Assembly: GCF_025148785.1 (NCBI RefSeq)
Contig: NZ_CP102271.1
Span: forward strand, 77,434 to 109,433
Source of the DNA: Catenibacterium mitsuokai
GTDB taxonomy: Bacteria > Bacillota_I > Bacilli_A > Erysipelotrichales > Coprobacillaceae
Reading direction: 5' to 3'
DNA length: 32,000 nucleotides
Both the position numbers and the translations under genes were made by a program. This document shows positions 2,337 to 30,625 of the stretch, one piece after another (the stretch's first letter is position 1; every line of letters starts with the position of its first letter). The notes under the pieces are model-generated. The model was given only the letters and a program-made list of their open reading frames with translations. It searched no databases and was not told the DNA's origin.

Positions 2337-2375
2337 GTGCTATACTTGTTGAGAGAATATGAAGGAGGGGGTTTT

Positions 2376-4721
2376 ATGACTCTAGATGAGTTAAAGATTG
2401 GTGAAAGTGCTACAGTGACTTATGTAGGGGGCTCTGGGTCATTAAGACAACATTTCCTAGATATGGGTTTAATACCAGGTTCTGTTGTAACATTGGAAAA
2501 ATTCGCCCCAATGGGTGATCCAATGGAATTACGTATTCATGGCTATGAGCTAACATTACGTTTAGATGATGCAAAAAAGATTGGAATAGATATGACAACT
2601 AAAGGTGTAGAGAATCATACACCTATTCCACCTATTCAACACCATATTCATCCAGGACTCGGTGAAGGTGGTAAATATCATGATAAAGAGACTGAAAATC
2701 CTTTATCAGAAGGAACACAGATTACCTTTGCGTTAGCAGGTAACCAGAACTGTGGTAAAACGACATTATTTAATCAATTAACAGGTTCTAATCAACATGT
2801 AGGGAACTTCCCTGGTGTGACTGTTGATAGAAAGAGTGGGTCTATTAAAGGACATCCAGAAACACTTGTAACTGATTTACCAGGTATTTATTCTTTATCT
2901 CCTTATACAAGTGAAGAATTAGTATCTAGACAGTATATCTTAGATGAAAAACCTAAAGGAATCATCAACATCGTAGATGCAACAAATATAGAAAGAAACC
3001 TATATCTCACTATGCAGTTAATGGAACTAGATGTACCAATGGTTCTAGCACTGAATATGATGGATGAAGTAAGAGGTAATGGTGGTTATGTTCATCTAAA
3101 TAAGATGGAAGAACTATTGGGTATCCCAGTTGTTCCTATTTCTGCTGCTAAGAATGAAGGTATTGATGAACTAGTGAATCATGCCATCCATGTAGCGAAA
3201 TATCAAGAAGCACCTTTAAGACAGGACTTTTGTGATGAAAATGATGAAGGTGGAGCAGTGCATAGATGCTTACATGCCATCATGCATTTAATTGAAGACC
3301 ATGCAAAGCGAGCTGGTATTCCATTACGTTTTGCGGCTAATAAATTAGTAGAAGGTGATGCAAGAGTAGAAGCAGCCTTAGACCTTGATACAAATGAAAA
3401 AGAAATGATTGAACATATCATTTCACAGATGGAAGAAGAAAGAGGATTAGACCGTACTGCTGCTATTGCGGATATGCGTTTTACCTTTATTAATAAATTA
3501 GTTAAAGAAACAGTGGTTAAACCACATGAAAGTAAAGAAAGAGAAAGCAGCCGTAAGATTGATGAAGTCTTAACAGGTAAATACACTGGTCTTCCTGCTT
3601 TTATCATTATTATGGGACTCGTATTCTTTTTAACATTTAATGTACTTGGTGCCTGGGGACAGTCACTTATGGAAATAGGCGTTGATGCTTTGACTCAAGT
3701 TGTAGATAAAGGACTCACTGCTTGGGATATTAACCCAGTCCTTCATTCATTAGTCATTGATGGTGTATTCCAGGGTGTTGGTTCTATTATTAGTTTCTTA
3801 CCTATTATTGTTATTTTATTCTTCTTCTTATCATTATTAGAAGATACAGGATATATGGCTCGTGTCGCTTTTGTAAGTGATAAACTACTCAGAAAAATCG
3901 GTTTATCAGGAAGAAGTATTGTGCCAATGTTGATTGGATTTGGATGTTCTGTACCAAGTGTTATGGCCAGCCGTACACTCCCTTCAGAACGTGACCGTAA
4001 GATGACAATCATGTTGACACCATTTATGAGCTGTACTGCAAAGCTTCCAATCTATGCATTCTTTGCAGCTGCATTCTTCCCAAAACAGGCTGGACTGGTC
4101 ATGGTTGGATTATATATCTTTGGTATTGTGATGGGTATTATTACAGCCCTCATTTCTAAGCGTTTCTTATTCAAAGGTGAAGCTGTTCCATTTGTGATGG
4201 AACTCCCTAACTATCGTATGCCTAGCGCAAAAACTACTTTCCAGTTATTATGGGAAAAAGCCAAGGATTTCTTACAAAGAGCCTTTGGTATTATCTTTAT
4301 CGCTTCTATTGTCATTTGGTTCTTACAGAGCTTTAATTTAAGATTAGATTTAGTCTCTAATTCACAGGATAGTATTCTTGCAATGGTGGCAGGATTTATT
4401 GCGCCAATCTTCAAACCTTTAGGTTTTGGTGATTGGAGAATTTCTACATCACTTATTGCAGGATTTATGGCAAAAGAAAGTGTTGTTTCTACACTCTCAG
4501 TATTATTTAAAGGAACAGAATCTTTAATGACAATACTTACACCTCTCGGTGCATTATCACTCTTAATATTCTGTTTATTATATACACCTTGCGTGGCAGC
4601 TATCGCTTCTATTAGAAGAGAACTAGGCGCTACATGGGCTGTGAAGATAGTTATCTTCCAGTGTGTTATTGCCTGGATTTGTGCCTTTATCGTACATACT
4701 ATTGGATTACTCTTCATATAA
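2376..4721 (+). CDS. feoB: Ferrous iron transport protein B with N-terminal FeoA domain (FeoA-FeoB fusion)
   Basis: FeoA-like MTLDELKIGESATVTYVGGSGSLRQHFLDMGLIPGSVVTLEKFAPMGDPMELRIHGYELTLR, then GNQNCGKTTLFNQLTG, FPGVTVD, DLPGIYSLSPYTSEE. ORF-track start (2337) is 13 codons too early; GGAGGGGG precedes ATG 2376. Confidence 0.93.
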   Translation: MTLDELKIGESATVTYVGGSGSLRQHFLDMGLIPGSVVTLEKFAPMGDPMELRIHGYELTLRLDDAKKIGIDMTTKGVENHTPIPPIQHHIHPGLGEGGKYHDKETENPLSEGTQITFALAGNQNCGKTTLFNQLTGSNQHVGNFPGVTVDRKSGSIKGHPETLVTDLPGIYSLSPYTSEELVSRQYILDEKPKGIINIVDATNIERNLYLTMQLMELDVPMVLALNMMDEVRGNGGYVHLNKMEELLGIPVVPISAAKNEGIDELVNHAIHVAKYQEAPLRQDFCDENDEGGAVHRCLHAIMHLIEDHAKRAGIPLRFAANKLVEGDARVEAALDLDTNEKEMIEHIISQMEEERGLDRTAAIADMRFTFINKLVKETVVKPHESKERESSRKIDEVLTGKYTGLPAFIIIMGLVFFLTFNVLGAWGQSLMEIGVDALTQVVDKGLTAWDINPVLHSLVIDGVFQGVGSIISFLPIIVILFFFLSLLEDTGYMARVAFVSDKLLRKIGLSGRSIVPMLIGFGCSVPSVMASRTLPSERDRKMTIMLTPFMSCTAKLPIYAFFAAAFFPKQAGLVMVGLYIFGIVMGIITALISKRFLFKGEAVPFVMELPNYRMPSAKTTFQLLWEKAKDFLQRAFGIIFIASIVIWFLQSFNLRLDLVSNSQDSILAMVAGFIAPIFKPLGFGDWRISTSLIAGFMAKESVVSTLSVLFKGTESLMTILTPLGALSLLIFCLLYTPCVAAIASIRRELGATWAVKIVIFQCVIAWICAFIVHTIGLLFI

Positions 4722-10208: not shown

Positions 10209-10232
10209 TAAAACGATTGTTTTTATTAAAGG
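10202..10232 (+). promoter_or_regulatory. Putative riboswitch expression platform (SD-sequestering hairpin)
   Basis: CCTTTAATAAAA (10202-10213) is perfectly complementary to TTTTATTAAAGG (10221-10232); the 3' arm overlaps the SD AAAGGAGG and the 5' arm overlaps P1. Confidence 0.75.
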
Positions 10233-10242
10233 AGGAATACAA

Positions 10243-12822
10243 ATGTATAAAAAAACAATTGAAGAAGTAGTAAACTCTTTAGATACAAATATTGAAAAGG
10301 GACTAACTTCTTCTGAAGCAAAGAAGAGACAAGGCATATATGGTACCAATGAACTAGAAAAGCCACAGAAAAGGTCTCTTCTTTTACGTTTTCTAGATCA
10401 ATTCAAGGATGCAATGATTATTATTTTAATTATTGCAGCAGTGATATCTATTGTTGTAGAACCAGGAGACTGGATTGATTCTCTAATTATTGTAATAGTT
10501 GTTATGATGAATGCGATTCTTGGTGTTGTATTAGAGAGTCATGCAGAAAAGAGTCTTGAATCATTACAGGAATTATCTGCACCACAATCAAAGGTATTAA
10601 GAGATGGTGTGAAACAGACTATAGCCTCTAAGGAATTAGTGCCTGGTGATATTATTATTCTTGAAACAGGGGATATGATTCCTAGTGATGCACGTTTAAT
10701 TGAAGCTTATAACTTAAAGGTGGATGAATCAGCCTTAACAGGTGAATCTGTTCCTGTAGAAAAGACAACTGATCCTATTAGTCAGGATGTTGTGATTGGC
10801 GACCAGACAAATATGGTCTTCTCTTCTACAGTAGTCACTTATGGTCGTGGTAAAGCAATAGTGACATCTACTGGTATGAAGAATGAAGTAGGTAAGATTG
10901 CTGGCATGTTGAATGCGAGTGAAAAGGAATTAACACCTTTACAGGTTAAATTAAATGAAATTGGTAAAACAATTGGATTACTTTGTATTGTAATCTGTGT
11001 GATTGTATTTATTCTTGAATCTATTAGCGGTATTAGCTGGTTAGAATCATTTAAGACAGCTGTTGCCTTAGCTGTTGCAGCTGTACCAGAAGGACTTGCA
11101 GCTACTGTTACTATTGTCTTAGCTGTCAGCGTGACTAAGATGGTTAAACAGCATGCCATTATTCGTAAATTACCTGCAGTAGAAACATTGGGTAGTACTT
11201 CTATTGTATGTTCTGATAAGACAGGTACATTAACACAAAATAAGATGACTATCTTAAAGACTTACTTAGATGGTGACGAAGTAAAAGATTTAGAAGAAGC
11301 AGATTCTAAGACTATTGATATGTTGAATGCATTTACTCTATGTTCTGATGCTTCTATTGATGATGGCAAGGTACTAGGTGATCCTACTGAAGTCGCACTC
11401 GTAGAAGCAAGTAAGAAGATGAACTTTGAAAAGAAAGCACTCATGGAAAAGTGTCCACGTGTAGGAGAATTAGCTTTTGATTCTGATCGTAAGATGATGA
11501 GTGTTATTGTGAAGGATGGAGATCGTTATGTGTCTATTACTAAAGGTGGACCTGATGTGATCTTAAATAGATGTCGTGATGTAGATAGTGACCAGGCTAT
11601 GACTGCCAATGATGAAATGGCTAAAGATGCATTAAGAGTTTTAGCTGTGGCAGTGAAGATATATGATACAATGCCTACTCACATTACAGTAGAAGAAATA
11701 GAAAATGATATGGACTTTATTGGGTTTGTAGGTATGATTGACCCAGCTCGTCCAGAAGCCAAAGAAGCCATTAGAGTTGCTAAGCATGCAGGTGTGCGTA
11801 CGATTATGATCACTGGTGACCATAAGACAACAGCCACTGCCATTGCGAAGGATTTAGGTATTTTAAGTGAGGGACAGGAAGTTATTTCTGGTGAAGAATT
11901 ATCTCAGATGTCTCAGGAAGAACTAGAAAAGAATGTAGAAAAATATAGTGTTTATGCACGTGTGGCTCCTGAACATAAAGTAAATATCGTCAAAGCATGG
12001 AAATCAAAGAATAAGATTGTCGCTATGACAGGGGATGGTGTCAATGATGCACCAGCCTTAAAGACTGCAGATATTGGCTGCGCTATGGGTATTACAGGTA
12101 CAGATGTAGCGAAGAATGCTGCTACTATGATCCTAACAGATGACAACTTTGCGACTATTATTCAGTCTATTAAACAGGGTCGTGGTATTTTTGATAATAT
12201 CCAGAAGGATGTACAGTTCTTATTATCAAGTAATATTGGTGAAGTACTTGCAATCTTCTTGGCTTCTATTATTGCGTTAATTAACCCTTCATGGGGATTT
12301 GGTGTTCCACTATTACCTATTCATTTATTATGGATTAACCTAATCACAGATGCTTTACCAGCCTTTGCGATTGGTTTAGAACCCGTTGAAGATGATATCA
12401 TGGATAGAAAACCAAGAGAAAAGGATGAAGGTTTCTTTGCGAATGGCTTAATGGTGAAAGTCATCTGGCAGGGTGTTATGGTAGGTTTACTTACTTTAGT
12501 TTCTTATTCAATTGGTCAGTATTTCAGTAATCATGAATATGCGATGACTATGGCATTTATCACAATGTCAGGCGCTGAATTATGTCATGCTTTTAACGTG
12601 AAGAGTCATCATTCAGTATTTAATAAGCAGGTATTCAACAATAAATATTTATGGGGTGCAACAGCTTTAGGTCTTGTATTACAGTTAGCCATCATCTTTA
12701 CACCTCTTTCTCATTTATTTAGTTTAGTGCCTCTTGATCCATCTCATTTCGCGATTGCAGCATTACTTGCATTCTCAGTTATCCCAATCGTAGAAATCTC
12801 TAAACGTTTCGATAAACGTTAA
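10243..12822 (+). CDS. P2-type cation ATPase (Ca2+/Mn2+ exporter-like)
   Basis: CSDKTGTLTQNKMT, GDPTEVALVEA, MITGDHKTTATAIAKDLGI, MTGDGVNDAPALKTADIG, AVAAVPEGLAA; start corrected from 10156 because that ATG lies inside the riboswitch. Confidence 0.93.
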   Translation: MYKKTIEEVVNSLDTNIEKGLTSSEAKKRQGIYGTNELEKPQKRSLLLRFLDQFKDAMIIILIIAAVISIVVEPGDWIDSLIIVIVVMMNAILGVVLESHAEKSLESLQELSAPQSKVLRDGVKQTIASKELVPGDIIILETGDMIPSDARLIEAYNLKVDESALTGESVPVEKTTDPISQDVVIGDQTNMVFSSTVVTYGRGKAIVTSTGMKNEVGKIAGMLNASEKELTPLQVKLNEIGKTIGLLCIVICVIVFILESISGISWLESFKTAVALAVAAVPEGLAATVTIVLAVSVTKMVKQHAIIRKLPAVETLGSTSIVCSDKTGTLTQNKMTILKTYLDGDEVKDLEEADSKTIDMLNAFTLCSDASIDDGKVLGDPTEVALVEASKKMNFEKKALMEKCPRVGELAFDSDRKMMSVIVKDGDRYVSITKGGPDVILNRCRDVDSDQAMTANDEMAKDALRVLAVAVKIYDTMPTHITVEEIENDMDFIGFVGMIDPARPEAKEAIRVAKHAGVRTIMITGDHKTTATAIAKDLGILSEGQEVISGEELSQMSQEELEKNVEKYSVYARVAPEHKVNIVKAWKSKNKIVAMTGDGVNDAPALKTADIGCAMGITGTDVAKNAATMILTDDNFATIIQSIKQGRGIFDNIQKDVQFLLSSNIGEVLAIFLASIIALINPSWGFGVPLLPIHLLWINLITDALPAFAIGLEPVEDDIMDRKPREKDEGFFANGLMVKVIWQGVMVGLLTLVSYSIGQYFSNHEYAMTMAFITMSGAELCHAFNVKSHHSVFNKQVFNNKYLWGATALGLVLQLAIIFTPLSHLFSLVPLDPSHFAIAALLAFSVIPIVEISKRFDKR

Positions 12823-12848
12823 CACCTGCATTGCAGGTGTTTTTTTTA
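12823..12848 (+). terminator. Rho-independent terminator after the ATPase
   Basis: CACCTGCATTGCAGGTG followed by TTTTTTT. Confidence 0.85.
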
Positions 12849-12857
12849 CTATTTCTA

Positions 12858-12886
12858 TTGCATTTATCTAATGAGAGTAGTATTAT
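12858..12886 (+). promoter_or_regulatory. Putative sigma-A promoter with no ORF downstream on this strand
   Basis: TTGCAT (12858-12863), 17-nt spacer, TATTAT (12881-12886). Confidence 0.5.
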
Positions 12887-12890
12887 TTAG

Positions 12891-12904
12891 TTAGTAAAGG
12901 CTAA
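12891..12904 (+). promoter_or_regulatory. DtxR-family-like operator (site 0)
   Basis: TTAGTAAAGGCTAA, of TTAG-N6-CTAA form, at the predicted transcription start; 13/14 identical to the site at 13482-13495. Confidence 0.5.
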
Positions 12905-13002
12905 CCTCCTTTACTAAACACAACATATCCTTTCATATTCTCAGTTCCTTAAAACAGAGGACATAAAAAAATCACAGGACGGCACACACCTGTGATTTTT
13001 TT
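12893..13002 (+). ncRNA. Candidate metal-regulated small RNA
   Basis: Promoter 12858-12886, intrinsic terminator 12965-13002, no ATG-started ORF, 5' hairpin around CCTCCTTTACTAA (anti-SD-like). Confidence 0.4.
12965..13002. terminator. Bidirectional Rho-independent terminator
   Basis: AAAAAAATCACAGG-ACGGCACACA-CCTGTGATTTTTTT. Confidence 0.85.
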
Positions 13003-13004
13003 AT

Positions 13005-13376
13005 TTAGATCTTATTTTTAAAATAAGCTTTTAATGCTTCAAAAGTTTCTGGTGAAATATAATGTTCGATACGACATGCATCCTGTGAAGCAGTAGACTC
13101 ACTGACTCCAATATGAACTAGGATATTTCTTAATTCAGTATGTCTTTCAAATATCATATTCGCAATCTTAGCACCAGCTTCTGTTAATGTGATGGCACCA
13201 TCTTCATCCATGTTGATGAGTTCCTTCTCTTTTAATCTTTTCATCTGTTGTGAAATAGTAGGTTTAGAGAAATTCATTTCACGGGCGATATCAATGGAAC
13301 GCACATGTCCTTTCTTTTTCTGAATAACTAATATAGTTTCTAAGTACATCTCTGTTGATTCACTCATTTTATTCAC
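13005..13376 (-). CDS. DtxR/MntR-family metal-dependent transcriptional regulator
   Basis: MSESTEMYLETILVIQKKKGHVRSIDIAREMNFSKPTISQQMKRLKEKELINMDEDGAITLTEAGAKIANMIFERHTEL...EHYIS; GAGGTGA SD. Confidence 0.88.
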   Translation of the reverse strand: MNKMSESTEMYLETILVIQKKKGHVRSIDIAREMNFSKPTISQQMKRLKEKELINMDEDGAITLTEAGAKIANMIFERHTELRNILVHIGVSESTASQDACRIEHYISPETFEALKAYFKNKI

Positions 13377-13420
13377 CTCATTTTCATCATTATAGCATAA
13401 AAATTCAAATAATGAAAAAG

Positions 13421-13434
13421 TTAGGCTTTACTAA
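13421..13434 (+). promoter_or_regulatory. DtxR-family-like operator (site 1)
   Basis: TTAGGCTTTACTAA; lies upstream of the feo -35 and between the two divergent genes. Confidence 0.6.
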
Positions 13435-13442
13435 TATTTTTG

Positions 13443-13471
13443 TTGACATATAAAAATAGTAAGGCTATACT
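13443..13471 (+). promoter_or_regulatory. Sigma-A promoter of the feo operon
   Basis: TTGACA (13443-13448), 17-nt spacer, TATACT (13466-13471). Confidence 0.75.
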
Positions 13472-13473
13472 AA
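13460..13473 (+). promoter_or_regulatory. DtxR-family-like operator (site 2) overlapping the -10
   Basis: TAAGGCTATACTAA; 12/14 identical to site 1. Confidence 0.55.
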
Positions 13474-13481
13474 CAATGAAG

Positions 13482-13495
13482 TTAGAAAAGGCTAA
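13482..13495 (+). promoter_or_regulatory. DtxR-family-like operator (site 3)
   Basis: TTAGAAAAGGCTAA. Confidence 0.5.
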
Positions 13496-13509
13496 TTAGT
13501 TTAGTCTAA
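13496..13509 (+). promoter_or_regulatory. DtxR-family-like operator (site 4), abutting site 3
   Basis: TTAGTTTAGTCTAA. Confidence 0.45.
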
Positions 13510-16106: not shown

Positions 16107-16454
16107 ATGGGTAACATCATAGTTGCGGCTATTATTGTTGTGTTGCTCATTATAGGTGTTCTTCACTACAAGAAGACATTACAGTCAGGATGTTGTGGTG
16201 AACACGATCAAATAAAGAAAATAGGTACGGGGGATAAGGATAAAAATCTTTATCCCTATCGTACTACTCTTCATATTGACGATATGTTCTGCAAGAACTG
16301 TGCAGCAACAATAGAAAACGCATTTAATCAACATAAAGAATATCTAGCATCAGTAAACATGAATAAGAAAGAAATCACTATTCTTTCTATGAATCAACCT
16401 GATCTAGAAATATATAAACAGATGATCATCAAACTTGGTTATACTCCAAGATAA
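16107..16454 (+). CDS. Small membrane-anchored protein with heavy-metal-associated (HMA)-like domain
   Basis: N-terminal TM, GCC motif, then YPYRTTLHIDDMFCKNCAATIENAFNQHKEYLASVNMNKKEITILS. Confidence 0.7.
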   Translation: MGNIIVAAIIVVLLIIGVLHYKKTLQSGCCGEHDQIKKIGTGDKDKNLYPYRTTLHIDDMFCKNCAATIENAFNQHKEYLASVNMNKKEITILSMNQPDLEIYKQMIIKLGYTPR

Positions 16455-16483: not shown

Positions 16484-16675
16484 ATGGGTACAATTATAGT
16501 AAGTATTTTATTAGTTATCTGGATTTGTCTTGTCCTTAGAACTATATATAAAAATAAGAAAAAAGGCATAGGTGTATGTGGACATAATTGTAATACATGT
16601 GGCACAAATGATCTATGTCATGCTGATCTCTATAAAATGTATCGTGAAGAGATGCGTAAAGAAGGGCACGCTTAG
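16484..16675 (+). CDS. FeoB-associated Cys-rich membrane protein-like
   Basis: N-terminal TM followed by GIGVCGHNCNTCGTNDLCHADLYKMY; last gene of the feo operon. Confidence 0.65.
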   Translation: MGTIIVSILLVIWICLVLRTIYKNKKKGIGVCGHNCNTCGTNDLCHADLYKMYREEMRKEGHA

Positions 16676-16692
16676 TGTTCTTCTTTTTTTTA
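16661..16692 (+). terminator. Rho-independent terminator of the feo operon
   Basis: GAAGGGCAC-GCTTA-GTGTTCTTC (two G-U pairs) then TTTTTTT. Confidence 0.7.
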
Positions 16693-16777
16693 GTTTGAGC
16701 ATATTCATTGAATTATATCTCAAAAGGACTATAGTATAAGTAGTAATAATTACTATATACTAAAGGAGGATCATAAT

Positions 16778-16894
16778 ATGAAATGGGTATGTAAAGTATG
16801 TGGATATGTGTATGAAGGTGATGAATTACCTGAAGATTATGTATGTCCAGTATGTGGTGTAGGACCAGAAGAATTTGAAAAAGTAGAAGAATAA
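16778..16894 (+). CDS. Rubredoxin (38 aa), absent from the supplied ORF track
   Basis: ATG with TAAAGGAGG SD; [38 protein letters not shown], with two CxxC motifs. Confidence 0.92.
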
Positions 16895-17050: not shown

Positions 17051-17479
17051 ATGGGAGTAAACTATTTTAGTGATGAACAAGTAAAGGAACTCGAAAAGAA
17101 TCCATATGTAAAGAAAGTATCTATCAAAAGCATAACCTATTCAGAAAAATTCAAAGAACTCTTCTGGATTGATTTACAGAAAGGCATGATGCCTGGAAAC
17201 ATATTTAGAAAGTATGGATTTGATCCTCATATGTTAGGATCTAGTCGAACTCCCAAGTTCACAGATCGTGTAAGGAAAGAAGCAGCAAGGGAAGAAGGAT
17301 TCAAGGATACCAGAGGCACAAAATCCGGAAGACCTTCTACAAAGAATCTTACCATTGAGGAACAGCTAGAAAGGCTTAAGCAGAAAAATAAAATTCTCCA
17401 GCAGGAGAACGATTTTTTAAAAAGAGTGAGATTTATCAACAGAAAGCAAATATTAAAACTGCAGAAGGGCAAACAATAA
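17051..17479 (+). CDS. IS3-family OrfA (HTH/leucine-zipper protein)
   Basis: YSEKFKELFWIDLQKGMMPGNIFRKYGFDP...LTIEEQLERLKQKNKILQQENDFLKR. Confidence 0.85.
   Translation: MGVNYFSDEQVKELEKNPYVKKVSIKSITYSEKFKELFWIDLQKGMMPGNIFRKYGFDPHMLGSSRTPKFTDRVRKEAAREEGFKDTRGTKSGRPSTKNLTIEEQLERLKQKNKILQQENDFLKRVRFINRKQILKLQKGKQ
17416..17422 (+). promoter_or_regulatory. Candidate -1 frameshift heptamer T_TTA_AAA
   Basis: In-phase with OrfA codons TTT TTA AAA; the -1 frame is open from here into OrfB (KKSEIYQQKANIKTAEGQTIREKYKMIDRT). Confidence 0.5.
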
Positions 17480-17493
17480 GAGAAAAATATAAA

Positions 17494-18528
17494 ATGATAG
17501 ATAGAACTCTTGAATCACCTAGTAATAATCTGAGTGTCTCAGCATTATGTGATACTGCAGGTGTTTCAAGAAGTGGGTTCTATTCATGGAAGAAACGAAA
17601 AGGTTCCATAAGCGAAAAAGAAGAACAAGACCGTAAGGATTTTGAACTGATTTTAGAAGCATACAGGTTCAAAGGATATGACAAGGGCAGACGTGGTATT
17701 CATATGCGTCTTCTTCACATGGGCATTGTGATGAACCATAAAAAGATTTCAAGACTGATGAAGAAATACGGACTATTCTGTCCAATAAGAAAAGCCAATC
17801 CTGCAAGAAGAATGGCTAAGGCAATGAAAACATCAAATTATGCAGATAATATTCTAAACAGACACTTCGAGGAATATGGTCCTGGATATGTGCTTGAAAC
17901 AGATATTACTTATCTATTCTACGGTCACAAAAGATCTAAAGCCTATCTATCGGTGATAAAGGATGGATTTACAAAGCAGATTCTTGCATATGTATTATCA
18001 CCGTCTTTAGAAGTAGACTTTGTCCTGGAGACAATCAATCAGCTTTACAGTAAACATAAGCATAATATTCACACTGATGCTTTGATACACAGTGATCAGG
18101 GTGTGCATTATACAAGTGTCAAGTTTATTGACTTACTCAAGAGCCTGGAAATCAGACAGTCAATGTCAAGAAGAGGAAACTGCTGGGACAACGCTCCCCA
18201 GGAATCCTTCTTCGGACATATGAAAGATGAGATAGGTAGATATACAGAGAATGCCTGCTCATATGAAGAACTAAAGGAAATAATAGATTCCTATATGGTT
18301 TATTACAACAATGATCGTTATCAGTACAATCTGGCCAAACTTTCACCAAATGAATATTTTGAATATTATATAACTGGTGAATACCCACTAATTCATGTCG
18401 CAAAGGAGCCTGATGAATATAAGGAAAAATTCAGACAGATAAGAAATAATCTTGATAGAAACTCAACGCTCGAGAAATTAGTAGCTATCCTTCAAAGAAT
18501 AACTCATTTCAAACAGTCCATCAGGTAG
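17494..18528 (+). CDS. IS3-family OrfB transposase (DDE integrase core)
   Basis: VLETDITYLFYGHKRSKAYLSVIKDGFTKQILAYVLS..., LIHSDQGVHYTSVKFIDLL, SMSRRGNCWDNAPQESFFGHMKDE. Confidence 0.95.
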   Translation: MIDRTLESPSNNLSVSALCDTAGVSRSGFYSWKKRKGSISEKEEQDRKDFELILEAYRFKGYDKGRRGIHMRLLHMGIVMNHKKISRLMKKYGLFCPIRKANPARRMAKAMKTSNYADNILNRHFEEYGPGYVLETDITYLFYGHKRSKAYLSVIKDGFTKQILAYVLSPSLEVDFVLETINQLYSKHKHNIHTDALIHSDQGVHYTSVKFIDLLKSLEIRQSMSRRGNCWDNAPQESFFGHMKDEIGRYTENACSYEELKEIIDSYMVYYNNDRYQYNLAKLSPNEYFEYYITGEYPLIHVAKEPDEYKEKFRQIRNNLDRNSTLEKLVAILQRITHFKQSIR

Positions 18529-19602: not shown

Positions 19603-19626
19603 AGACCCAAGTTAAATAAACAAATC

Positions 19627-19846
19627 GATGAACGAGAAGAGTATCTTACAATCACCTACAGCGAGATGACATAGAGTGGAAGGTCATCAGGAAGATATAA
19701 GAGAAACGCACTCGGGAGAGTCTGTTGGAATTGAGTATAACAGAACGTGAATCTGCGTTAATGAAGAGGTGGTTTGTATGATACAAGCAACTAGAGTGGT
19801 ACCGCGTTTATATACGTCTCTGGATTAATCCAGAGGCGTTTTTTGT
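19627..19846 (+). promoter_or_regulatory. T-box leader, likely Arg-specific (candidate specifier CGC at 19707-19709)
   Basis: GATGAACGAGAAGAGTA start, GAAACGCACTCGGGAG specifier region, T-box AGAGTGGTACCGCG (19793-19806), terminator GTCTCTGGATTAATCCAGAGGCGTTTTTT; precedes argG. Confidence 0.92.
19814..19846 (+). terminator. T-box attenuator terminator
   Basis: ACGTCTCTGGATTAATCCAGAGGCGTTTTTTG. Confidence 0.85.
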
Positions 19847-19939: not shown

Positions 19940-21163
19940 ATGGAAAAGAAAACATTTAAGAAAGTTGTATTAGCTTATAGTGGAGGATTAGATACTTCAA
20001 TTATTATTTCTTGGTTAAAGGAAAATTATGGCTGTGAAGTTATTGCAGTTGCTGCTGATGTGGGACAGGGTGCTGGAGAACTTGATGGTCTTGATGAAAA
20101 GGCTGCAAAGACAGGTGCTTCTAAATATATTTGTGTAGATTGTAAACCTGAATTTGTTAAGGATTTCTGTTTTGAAGCAGTTAAAGCCAATGCATTATAT
20201 GAAGGTAAATATATGTTAGGTACTTCTCTTGCAAGACCAATTATTGCGAAGAAGTTAGTAGATATCGCTTTAGAAGAAGGTGCAGATGCAATCTGTCATG
20301 GATGTACTGGTAAAGGTAATGACCAGGTAAGATTTGAATTAGCTATTAAAGCATTTGCACCAGATATGCCTATTATCGCTCCTTGGAGAGAATGGGATAT
20401 TAAATCAAGAGAAGAAGAAATCGAATATGCGGAAGCAAGAAAGATTCCTCTAAAGATCAACAGAGAAACAAACTACTCTAAAGATAAGAACTTATGGCAT
20501 TTATCTCATGAAGGTTTAGATCTTGAAGATCCAGCTAATGAACCTAAGTATGATGAAATCCTAGAAATGGGTGTTTCACCAGAAAAGGCACCAGATGTTC
20601 CAACATATATCACTTTAACTTTTGAAAAGGGTGAAGCTGTAGCATTAAATGGTGAAAAGCTTGAACCAGTAGAAATGTTAGCTAAGTTAAATGAAATCGG
20701 TGGTGCAAACGGTGTTGGTATCGCCGATATGGTTGAAAACAGACTTGTTGGTATGAAATCAAGAGGTGTATATGAAACACCAGGTGGAACTATTTTATAT
20801 GCAGCACATCAGAACCTAGAAGAAATTACTGTAGATAAAGAAACACAGCACTTCAAACAGCAGGTAAGCTTAAAGCTTGCAGATAATATCTATAACGGTC
20901 AGTGGTATACACCTCTTACTGAAGCATTACTTGCATTTGTAGATAAGACTCAGGAAAACGTAAATGGTGATGTTAAACTTAAATTATATAAGGGTAATAT
21001 CGTAGGTGCTGGTGTAACATCTCCAGATACATTACATGATTTACAGACAGCATCATTTGATGAAGATGATGATTATGATCAGTATGATGCTAAAGGATTC
21101 ATCACATTATACGGTTTACCAATCAAGGTAAAAGCTAAGTTAGATCAGAAGAAAAAGAAATAG
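19940..21163 (+). CDS. argG: Argininosuccinate synthase
   Basis: [36 protein letters not shown]; [10 protein letters not shown]. Confidence 0.97.
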
Positions 21164-30549: not shown

Positions 30550-30625
30550 TGGTGACCGGTACGGGATTCGAACCCGTGAATGCATGCGTGAAAGGCATGT
30601 GAGTTAACCGTTTCTCCAACCGGCC
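30550..30625 (-). tRNA. tRNA-Glu (anticodon UUC), CCA encoded
   Basis: Minus strand GGCCGGTTGGAGAAACGGTTAACTCACATGCCTTTCACGCATGCATTCACGGGTTCGAATCCCGTACCGGTCACCA: full cloverleaf, loop CUUUCAC. Confidence 0.95.

Follow-up and report, generated by a model that had tools for sequence, protein, structure and literature searches.

Iron-responsive small RNAs (sRNAs) are central to the metal economy of model bacteria. Among the described systems, the closest in regulatory logic to the element considered here is MrsI (ncRv11846) of Mycobacterium tuberculosis and M. smegmatis, a ~100-nt sRNA with an IdeR site near its start, a short conserved functional region and an intrinsic terminator, which pairs with mRNAs of non-essential iron proteins in their 5′ regions (PMC6016810). 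IsrR of Staphylococcus is found genus-wide and has Fur boxes in its promoter and just after its start, several hairpins followed by a terminator, and unpaired C-rich regions directed at Shine-Dalgarno (SD) sequences, its genome being rich in AT; there is little covariation in its conserved stems (PMC9410917). FsrA and the proteobacterial RyhB and PrrF are iron-repressed and spare iron by blocking the translation of iron-protein mRNAs (PMC9410917), FsrA of Bacillus subtilis binding the SD sequence through a C-rich motif (as summarized in PMC9410917). The subject of this study is a predicted transcription unit of ~110 nt in a 32,000-nt stretch of the Catenibacterium mitsuokai genome (contig NZ_CP102271.1, positions 77,434 to 109,433; hereafter the window, in whose numbering all positions are given), which is probably a new, genus-restricted sRNA that is repressed by a DtxR-family regulator and analogous to MrsI, IsrR, and FsrA (Table 1).

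Control by a DtxR-family protein rather than by Fur, documented so far for the actinobacterial MrsI, thus has a precedent, and the likeness to the iron-sparing logic of RyhB and FsrA under a DtxR-type operator, which had been drawn in a sequence-only reading of the window, is reasonable. The Catenibacterium unit belongs to the Bacillota (Erysipelotrichales) and has no sequence or Rfam similarity to MrsI; its candidate seed is an unpaired stretch of 26 nt, whereas the seed of MrsI is a 6-nt hairpin loop. IsrR is Fur-controlled, 174 nt long, and equipped with three C-rich regions, in contrast to the CU-rich UCCUUUC and the apparent DtxR-type control of the Catenibacterium RNA, and the two are not homologous. 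FsrA, RyhB, and PrrF are likewise all under Fur, and FsrA needs FbpABC while RyhB and PrrF need Hfq. Particular to the Catenibacterium unit are the short DtxR-type protein in a member of the Bacillota and the tail-to-tail arrangement with the repressor gene across a shared terminator. A further short gene under a DtxR-family metalloregulator is the manganese-responsive mntS (rybA) of Escherichia coli, which was first taken for an sRNA, is repressed by MntR, and encodes a protein of 42 amino acids (aa); the Catenibacterium unit differs in having no usable reading frame and a regulator with Fe-type Met/Cys ligands.

Promoter-like matches occur at chance level in DNA as AT-rich as that of the window, and the promoter match of the unit is weak, so that the sequence alone proves little and the case rests on relatives. 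These were collected by a search with the regulator protein, that is, independently of the RNA element (L001-L005, L075-77, and L081). The query returned five species-level Catenibacterium genomes at 96–100% protein identity, including C. mitsuokai DSM 15897; contigs with regulator homologs that are 93% (L081), 86% (L075-77), and 70% (L078-80) identical; and Sharpea (62%), Kandleria (69%), and many remoter DtxR-family loci. Metagenome loci were found by an exact 20-mer, CATATCCTTTCATATTCTCA, which matched 38 contigs; 33 of these have the element and 5 are chance matches. The transcription unit is carried by 41 loci, among which the RNA has 20 distinct versions and the promoter 21, and it is present in all five species-level genomes, in L075-77, and in L081. 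Identity figures compare the window with five other genomes.

Both promoter hexamers are conserved across all 21 promoter variants, and the spacer between them is exactly 17 bp in 20 of these despite having been rewritten in several lineages (spacer identity 0.65); the lone variant with another spacing is a contig with other indel errors. On this comparison, conserved hexamers at a fixed spacing over a drifting spacer are the footprint expected of a working promoter, with A12893 as the predicted transcription start. The P-type ATPase gene upstream, which ends at 12822, is closed by a strong intrinsic terminator of its own, whose stem is kept and whose loop is free to vary among species (region identity 0.86); the downstream unit is therefore not the 3′ untranslated region of the ATPase gene, a worry that had been raised when the unit was first noticed.

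The predicted start is covered by an operator of the form TTAG-N6-CTAA, which lies constantly 4 nt past the −10 hexamer in the promoter variants compared. This motif is seen four times in the window against 0.97 expected (starts at 12891, 13421, 13482, and 13496), and all four sites fall inside 12891–13509, around the regulator gene; the tighter form TTAGWAAAGSCTAA has three exact matches in the window, all flanking that gene. A fifth, degenerate operator overlaps the −10 of the feo promoter. Between species, the feo operators keep the outer TTAG/CTAA invariant and vary in the inner six bases, and the same motif flanks feo promoters in Catenibacterium, Sharpea, Kandleria, and rumen Erysipelotrichaceae. 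Relative to the DtxR consensus palindrome TTAGGTTAGCCTAACCTAA (PMC7762939), the 14-mer has the form of positions 1–14 (and 6–19), and the full 19-bp palindrome is not present. The regulator has the helix-turn-helix DNA-binding domain and the dimerization domain of DtxR. In an alignment with DtxR, its M7, C98, E101, and H102 stand at the positions of M10, C102, E105, and H106, and MntR proteins have acidic residues (Asp/Glu) where the regulator has these Fe-type ligands; the regulator has no ancillary site and no SH3-like domain. Given the published role of these ligands, it is more likely a sensor of Fe2+ than of Mn2+, and repressor bound at the operator of the unit would block initiation.

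Much of this had been anticipated by the sequence-only reading, the features of which are all present in the sequence. Its TTGCAT-N17-TATTAT sequence is found as described, and both hexamers and their spacing are kept in relatives; the operator resembling those of feo does lie at the predicted start, A12893 being inside it; and the proposal of a DtxR-type operator beside the regulator gene is supported by the domains of the regulator, its Fe-type ligand set, and the clustering of the sites. A comparison of relatives, which that reading had suggested, found promoter, operator, and hairpin conserved, with covariation that is scarce but consistent.

The RNA of the window is predicted to fold with −29.4 kcal/mol (z = −6.7 vs. 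shuffles). When this RNA and four divergent versions were folded independently, they adopted one three-hairpin shape (−25 to −33 kcal/mol, z −5.9 to −7.2) in the order 5′ hairpin 1, ~26 unpaired bases, hairpin 2, and terminator. These independent single-sequence folds were added because the model-guided alignment A3, used instead of a MAFFT alignment (A1) that had put the 3′ arm of hairpin 1 wrongly, is biased towards structure. Standard pairs fill 99.4% of the pair cells in the model-guided alignment (19 sequences) and 47–61% when the 3′ partners are slid by 1–3 columns. Helix 1 changes from U-A to C-G at pair 3 in L003, L075, and L076, and its pair 8, read directly from the sequences, is G-C, G·U (L082, L092), or A-U (L093); hairpin 2 has a longer, rewritten 3′ arm and loop in L075, L076, and L082 (UUUCCUU/AAGGAAA) with pairing preserved. 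Since a G·U pair would read as an A·C mismatch in the opposite strand, the plus strand is taken to be the RNA strand.

Hairpin 1 had been proposed from its two arms, AGUAAAGG and CCUUUACU, and is predicted by folding as well. The functional part suggested with it, an anti-SD segment CCUCCUUUACUAA, fared differently: a CCUCC loop is found in just 6 of the 41 loci, the loop end being CCC in the commonest version and CCCC, CUCC, CUA, CUG, or CU in others. As CCUCC is not conserved and most of the segment lies in the 3′ arm of the hairpin 1 stem, CCUCCUUUACUAA was rejected in that role. The conserved, unpaired, CU-rich candidate seed sits further downstream, at 12918–12943. The pyrimidine-rich motifs that are conserved are UCCUUUC (12928–12934, unpaired) and UUCCUU in the 5′ arm of hairpin 2.

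The same observations bear on whether a functional RNA is made at all. At the level of DNA only, the operator could be an auxiliary site that aids repression of the regulator and feo promoters 530 bp away, through looping or as a local repressor site, next to an ordinary bidirectional terminator. In favor of this, the motif is genuine and its sites cluster, the operator forms part of the inverted repeat of hairpin 1, and the regulator gene needs a terminator anyway. Such a role leaves unaccounted for, however, the conserved hexamers at a fixed 17-bp spacing over a drifting spacer, the invariant 26 nt between operator and terminator, and a hairpin 2 that has been rebuilt with its pairing kept. 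The G·U pairs, moreover, are mismatches in DNA, and the second arm of hairpin 1 is itself no TTAG-N6-CTAA site; we regard an explanation at the DNA level only as very unlikely.

Identity is 0.96 in the unpaired core and 0.975 in the terminator, including its loop, which places both at the level of the first and second codon positions of the flanking genes (0.96–0.99) rather than that of third positions (0.81–0.84); the 26-nt stretch is identical in all five species-level genomes, L075-77, and L081. The plus strand of 12893–13002 contains no ATG, as had been noted from the sequence, and neither GTG nor TTG occurs there except in the terminator stem; a check for a small-protein gene of the mntS kind revealed no reading frame that is conserved and has a start codon and a ribosome-binding site. 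Two short minus-strand ORFs (open reading frames) were considered and rejected: MKGYVV..., which is preceded by an AAGGA box, because indels of 1–2 nt in the loop make close relatives differ in its frame and endpoint and because it is located past the regulator terminator, and MSSVLRN, because the small minus-strand ORFs are not conserved or are frame-shifted and lie downstream of the terminator. It is hardly credible, then, that the locus is a tiny-protein gene or the decaying promoter or leader remnant of a formerly operator-controlled gene. Such an origin would suit a locus that has been rearranged, as is evident from relatives with a 70%-identical regulator, which have neither the ATPase gene nor the unit, and MKGYVV with its AAGGA box does exist; but a remnant should not be conserved across species well above the level of third codon positions, the plus strand offers no start codon, and the minus-strand ORF differs in frame and length between close relatives. 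As judged from these sequence features, the unit is stand-alone and ORF-free, with its own promoter and intrinsic terminator, and it is quite probably a genuine non-coding transcription unit, maintained by selection and controlled by the local repressor.

At its 3′ end the unit meets the regulator gene tail to tail (minus strand, 13367 to 13005). The terminator between them starts 2 nt past the regulator stop codon and, lying between a run of A and a run of T, serves both strands; the terminator scan missed it for the sole reason that its loop is 10 nt long. The predicted extent of ~110 nt up to a strong terminator, proposed earlier, agrees with the sequence (terminator at 12965–13002). The loop, ACGGCACACA (12979–12988), is almost invariant across species, whereas that of the ATPase terminator varies freely; near-fixation of the loop is not required by termination alone, and no complement to ACGGCACACA was found elsewhere in the window.

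This layout allows for an RNA that acts in cis on its own repressor, in which transcription from the iron-derepressed promoter, pairing of the two 3′ ends through their complementary 10-nt loops, or occasional antisense read-through would lower the regulator mRNA and sharpen derepression. The 3′ ends of the two transcripts are complementary over ~40 nt, the terminator loop is held almost constant in the very genomes in which the ATPase terminator loop is free to vary, and the RNA gene stays beside the regulator in L082, where the ~130 nt upstream, to the contig end, are unlike the end of the ATPase gene. Regulation in cis nevertheless leaves the invariant 26-nt stretch and hairpin 2, both outside the overlap, unexplained; read-through of a terminator with a 14-bp stem and U7 should be rare, and the complementary segments are both locked in their own hairpins. 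We consider it unlikely as the explanation of the unit, and it could operate beside a trans-acting RNA rather than replace it.

For pairing in trans, the best non-self complement of the core over 64 kb of both strands is the start of the rubredoxin gene, and the ribosome-binding site of a FeoA-FeoB fusion gene (FeoAB) ranks third. In every Catenibacterium locus the predicted duplex with rubredoxin falls between −19.6 and −23.8 kcal/mol; in Kandleria and L078, both of which are without the sRNA, it has −15.5 kcal/mol. The pairing with FeoAB is kept in L097 and L120-122, and this retention is uninformative because the whole region is almost identical across those contigs. Of 122 foreign start regions, taken from other low-GC loci, none attains −19.7 kcal/mol, and by our calculation the chance that the top two of 34 start regions both come from the seven iron-related ones is ~0.04. 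The SD sequence TAAAGGAGG that the sequence-only reading had assigned to rubredoxin (16761) and to the ATPase (10227, before its likely true start) is present at both places; the ATPase start was rejected as a target, its good pairing being confined to the non-conserved CCUCC variant.

An iron-controlled RNA might instead act by binding a protein, as a sponge or with a chaperone partner, and not by pairing with mRNA. Its invariant primary sequence, its little covariation, and a terminator loop fixed without evident reason would fit this, and the stems of IsrR, which also show little covariation, have been taken as a hint of a protein partner (PMC9410917); the target predictions, furthermore, are statistically weak. 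No repeated protein-binding motif, such as multiple GGA loops, is visible, however; the SD-pairing sRNAs of low-GC Gram-positive bacteria likewise have an unpaired, CU-rich stretch such as the one conserved here, and the best complements of the core in the window are two iron-related gene starts. A protein-binding RNA is accordingly a quite unlikely account of the unit.

The reading that we prefer, with a probability of roughly 0.55 for the mechanism as a whole, is an iron-starvation-induced, trans-acting RNA that pairs with SD sequences or start codons. A σ70-type promoter would start transcription near A12893 and the shared bidirectional terminator would end it at ~13002. Because the same operator motif lies at both promoters, Fe2+-loaded repressor would silence the RNA gene and the feo operon jointly, and iron scarcity would free both. 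The unpaired CU-rich 26-nt stretch would then pair with translation-initiation regions and lower translation, which is the weakest step; the best candidates in the window would be rubredoxin, as an iron-sparing target, and the operator-less FeoA-FeoB fusion transporter. In a more ambitious form, which we hold to be quite improbable, the RNA would be the first case in Bacillota of a riboregulator controlled by a DtxR-family repressor, convergent with the repressor gene and sharing complementary, invariant 10-nt terminator loops with it, and on iron starvation would silence rubredoxin, switch the cell from the FeoA-FeoB fusion to FeoA-FeoA-FeoB, and feed back on the repressor mRNA by 3′-end pairing.

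Several results weigh against this trans-acting mechanism or parts of it. The −35 hexamer TTGCAT is weak, matching TTGACA at 3 of 6 positions, and a generic promoter scan did not call the promoter (8/12 matches); the scan was set aside as evidence, being by itself neither support for nor refutation of a promoter. Covariation contributes only −0.31 kcal/mol to the consensus fold and is thin throughout, with one helix 1 pair clearly compensatory and one more readable from the sequences; low divergence among the sequences accounts both for this and for the absence of statistical proof of the structure. Invariance of the core in the metagenome loci follows from their retrieval by an exact 20-mer, a bias that does not apply to L001-L005, L075-77, and L081. 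The unit is absent next to the regulator in Sharpea and Kandleria and is absent from the 70% lineage, where the regulator is followed directly by an Sm_multidrug_ex gene, and a covariance model of the RNA (R1) found no homolog over ~4 kb on each side of the regulator in 69 sources, among them Sharpea, Kandleria, rumen Erysipelotrichaceae, and many DtxR loci from other phyla; orphan TTAG-N6-CTAA matches in those same regions are just intragenic and due to chance. The target search covered 32 kb of the genome, and of 500 shuffled cores, 32 reach 13 contiguous pairs among 33 start regions and 94 reach the same energy, neither of which makes the predictions significant. Muting a second iron importer under iron starvation also has no obvious logic. 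With shuffle controls that are unfavorable and foreign-start and whole-window scans that are favorable, rubredoxin and FeoAB are leads only, suggestive as targets and not significant.

In the window, the Sm_multidrug_ex gene lies upstream of the ATPase gene. In L078 (4373–4395; also L079 and L080) it is found 24 bp after the regulator gene, with the ATPase gene and the RNA unit both missing, so that the two were gained or lost as one block. The ATPase ORF is listed from 10156, without a ribosome-binding site; a likelier start is the ATG at 10243, which follows TAAAGGAGG at 10227 and is the start called in related contigs, giving a protein of ~860 aa.

At the level of families, a search of 12780–13060 against Rfam 15 gave no match at the gathering score, families such as RyhB, PrrF, FsrA, and RsaE/RoxS included; at E ≤ 10 the only matches were weak, terminator-driven, and far below thresholds, and none was to RyhB, PrrF, or FsrA. 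Over the whole window, the matches at the gathering score were a T-box and a tRNA only, elsewhere in the window: the T-box leader (130.9 bits) at 19619–19824, upstream of an operon starting at 19940, and the tRNA gene on the minus strand at 30553–30625. A literature search on Catenibacterium sRNAs found nothing. By its sequence and predicted structure, the RNA would be a new family of a functional class that is already known.

The rubredoxin gene forms its own unit after the feo operon terminator (16660–16692), with a promoter region at 16709–16756 (−35 TTGAAT, −10 TATAGT). A 7-1-7 palindrome, TAGTAAT-A-ATTACTA, lies over its predicted start. All Catenibacterium loci keep this palindrome, whose sequence in Kandleria and L078 is symmetrically altered to TAGGAAT-C-ATTCCTA, and it looks like a PerR/Fur-family box by sequence. 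Synteny with other Catenibacterium genomes stops at ~16938: L075 has a rubrerythrin gene after rubredoxin, and the window has an insertion sequence element with HTH_Tnp_2 and rve transposase genes (17051–18528). Within the feo operon, a 115-aa gene (16107–16454) between feoB and the gene for a FeoB-associated Cys-rich protein has only a sub-threshold match to HMA (heavy-metal-associated), and its position is conserved in all related feo operons. The FeoA-FeoB fusion is a second ferrous-iron transporter, preceded by an extended −10 (TGCTATACT, 2338–2346) without TTAG-N6-CTAA; its nearest relatives outside Catenibacterium are Lachnospiraceae proteins with ~76% identity, which suggests horizontal acquisition.

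Table 1. Features of the sRNA locus and of its candidate targets, with positions in the window (strand "." where a feature is not tied to one strand).
Feature	Position	Strand	Details
P-type ATPase intrinsic terminator	12821–12848	+	9-bp G+C-rich stem, then T8 run
−35 hexamer TTGCAT	12858–12863	+	TTGCAT, TTGAAA, or TTGCAA across all 21 promoter variants; identity 0.93
−10 hexamer TATTAT	12881–12886	+	TATTAT, TACTAT, or TATCAT (always TAnnAT); identity 0.97
Operator TTAGTAAAGGCTAA (TTAG-N6-CTAA)	12891–12904	.	about −2 to +12 relative to predicted start
Predicted sRNA	12893–13002	+	106–110 nt by lineage; covariance model 107–139 bits (20 versions, 41 loci)
Hairpin 1 (AGUAAAGG / CCUUUACU)	12893–12915	+	loop is CUAAC plus a variable part
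Unpaired invariant stretch ACACAACAUAUCCUUUCAUAUUCUCA, candidate seed	12918–12943	+	unpaired in every fold
Hairpin 2 (UCCUU / GAGGA)	12946–12961	+	U·G to U-A change
Bidirectional terminator AAAAAAATCACAGG-N10-CCTGTGATTTTTTT	12965–13002	.	A7-UCACAGG, 10-nt loop, CCUGUGA-U7; 14-bp stem
DtxR/IdeR-type repressor gene, 120 aa	13005–13367	−	Pfam PF01325 and PF02742
Operators of the divergent regulator/feoA-feoA-feoB promoters	13421–34, 13460–73 (degenerate), 13482–95, 13496–509	.	motif search
feo promoter TTGACA-17-TATACT	13443–13471		
Candidate target 1: AAUAUGAAAUGGGUAUGU over rubredoxin start codon (gene 16778–16894)	16775–16792	+	−21.7 kcal/mol
Candidate target 2: GAGAAUAUGAAGG overlapping ribosome-binding site of FeoA-FeoB fusion (gene 2376–4721)	2353–2365	+	13 contiguous pairs, −19.7 kcal/mol

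What is gained is an incremental step, with a new family and no new principle, and to our knowledge no iron-responsive sRNA has been described in the Erysipelotrichales, which are common gut anaerobes. Catenibacterium is an abundant commensal of the human gut. As the locus illustrates, unannotated RNA genes can be flagged by the 'orphan' operators of a local regulator, and a compact module that joins repressor, operator, and sRNA with a Feo transporter would offer a testable entry to the way in which such anaerobes ration iron.

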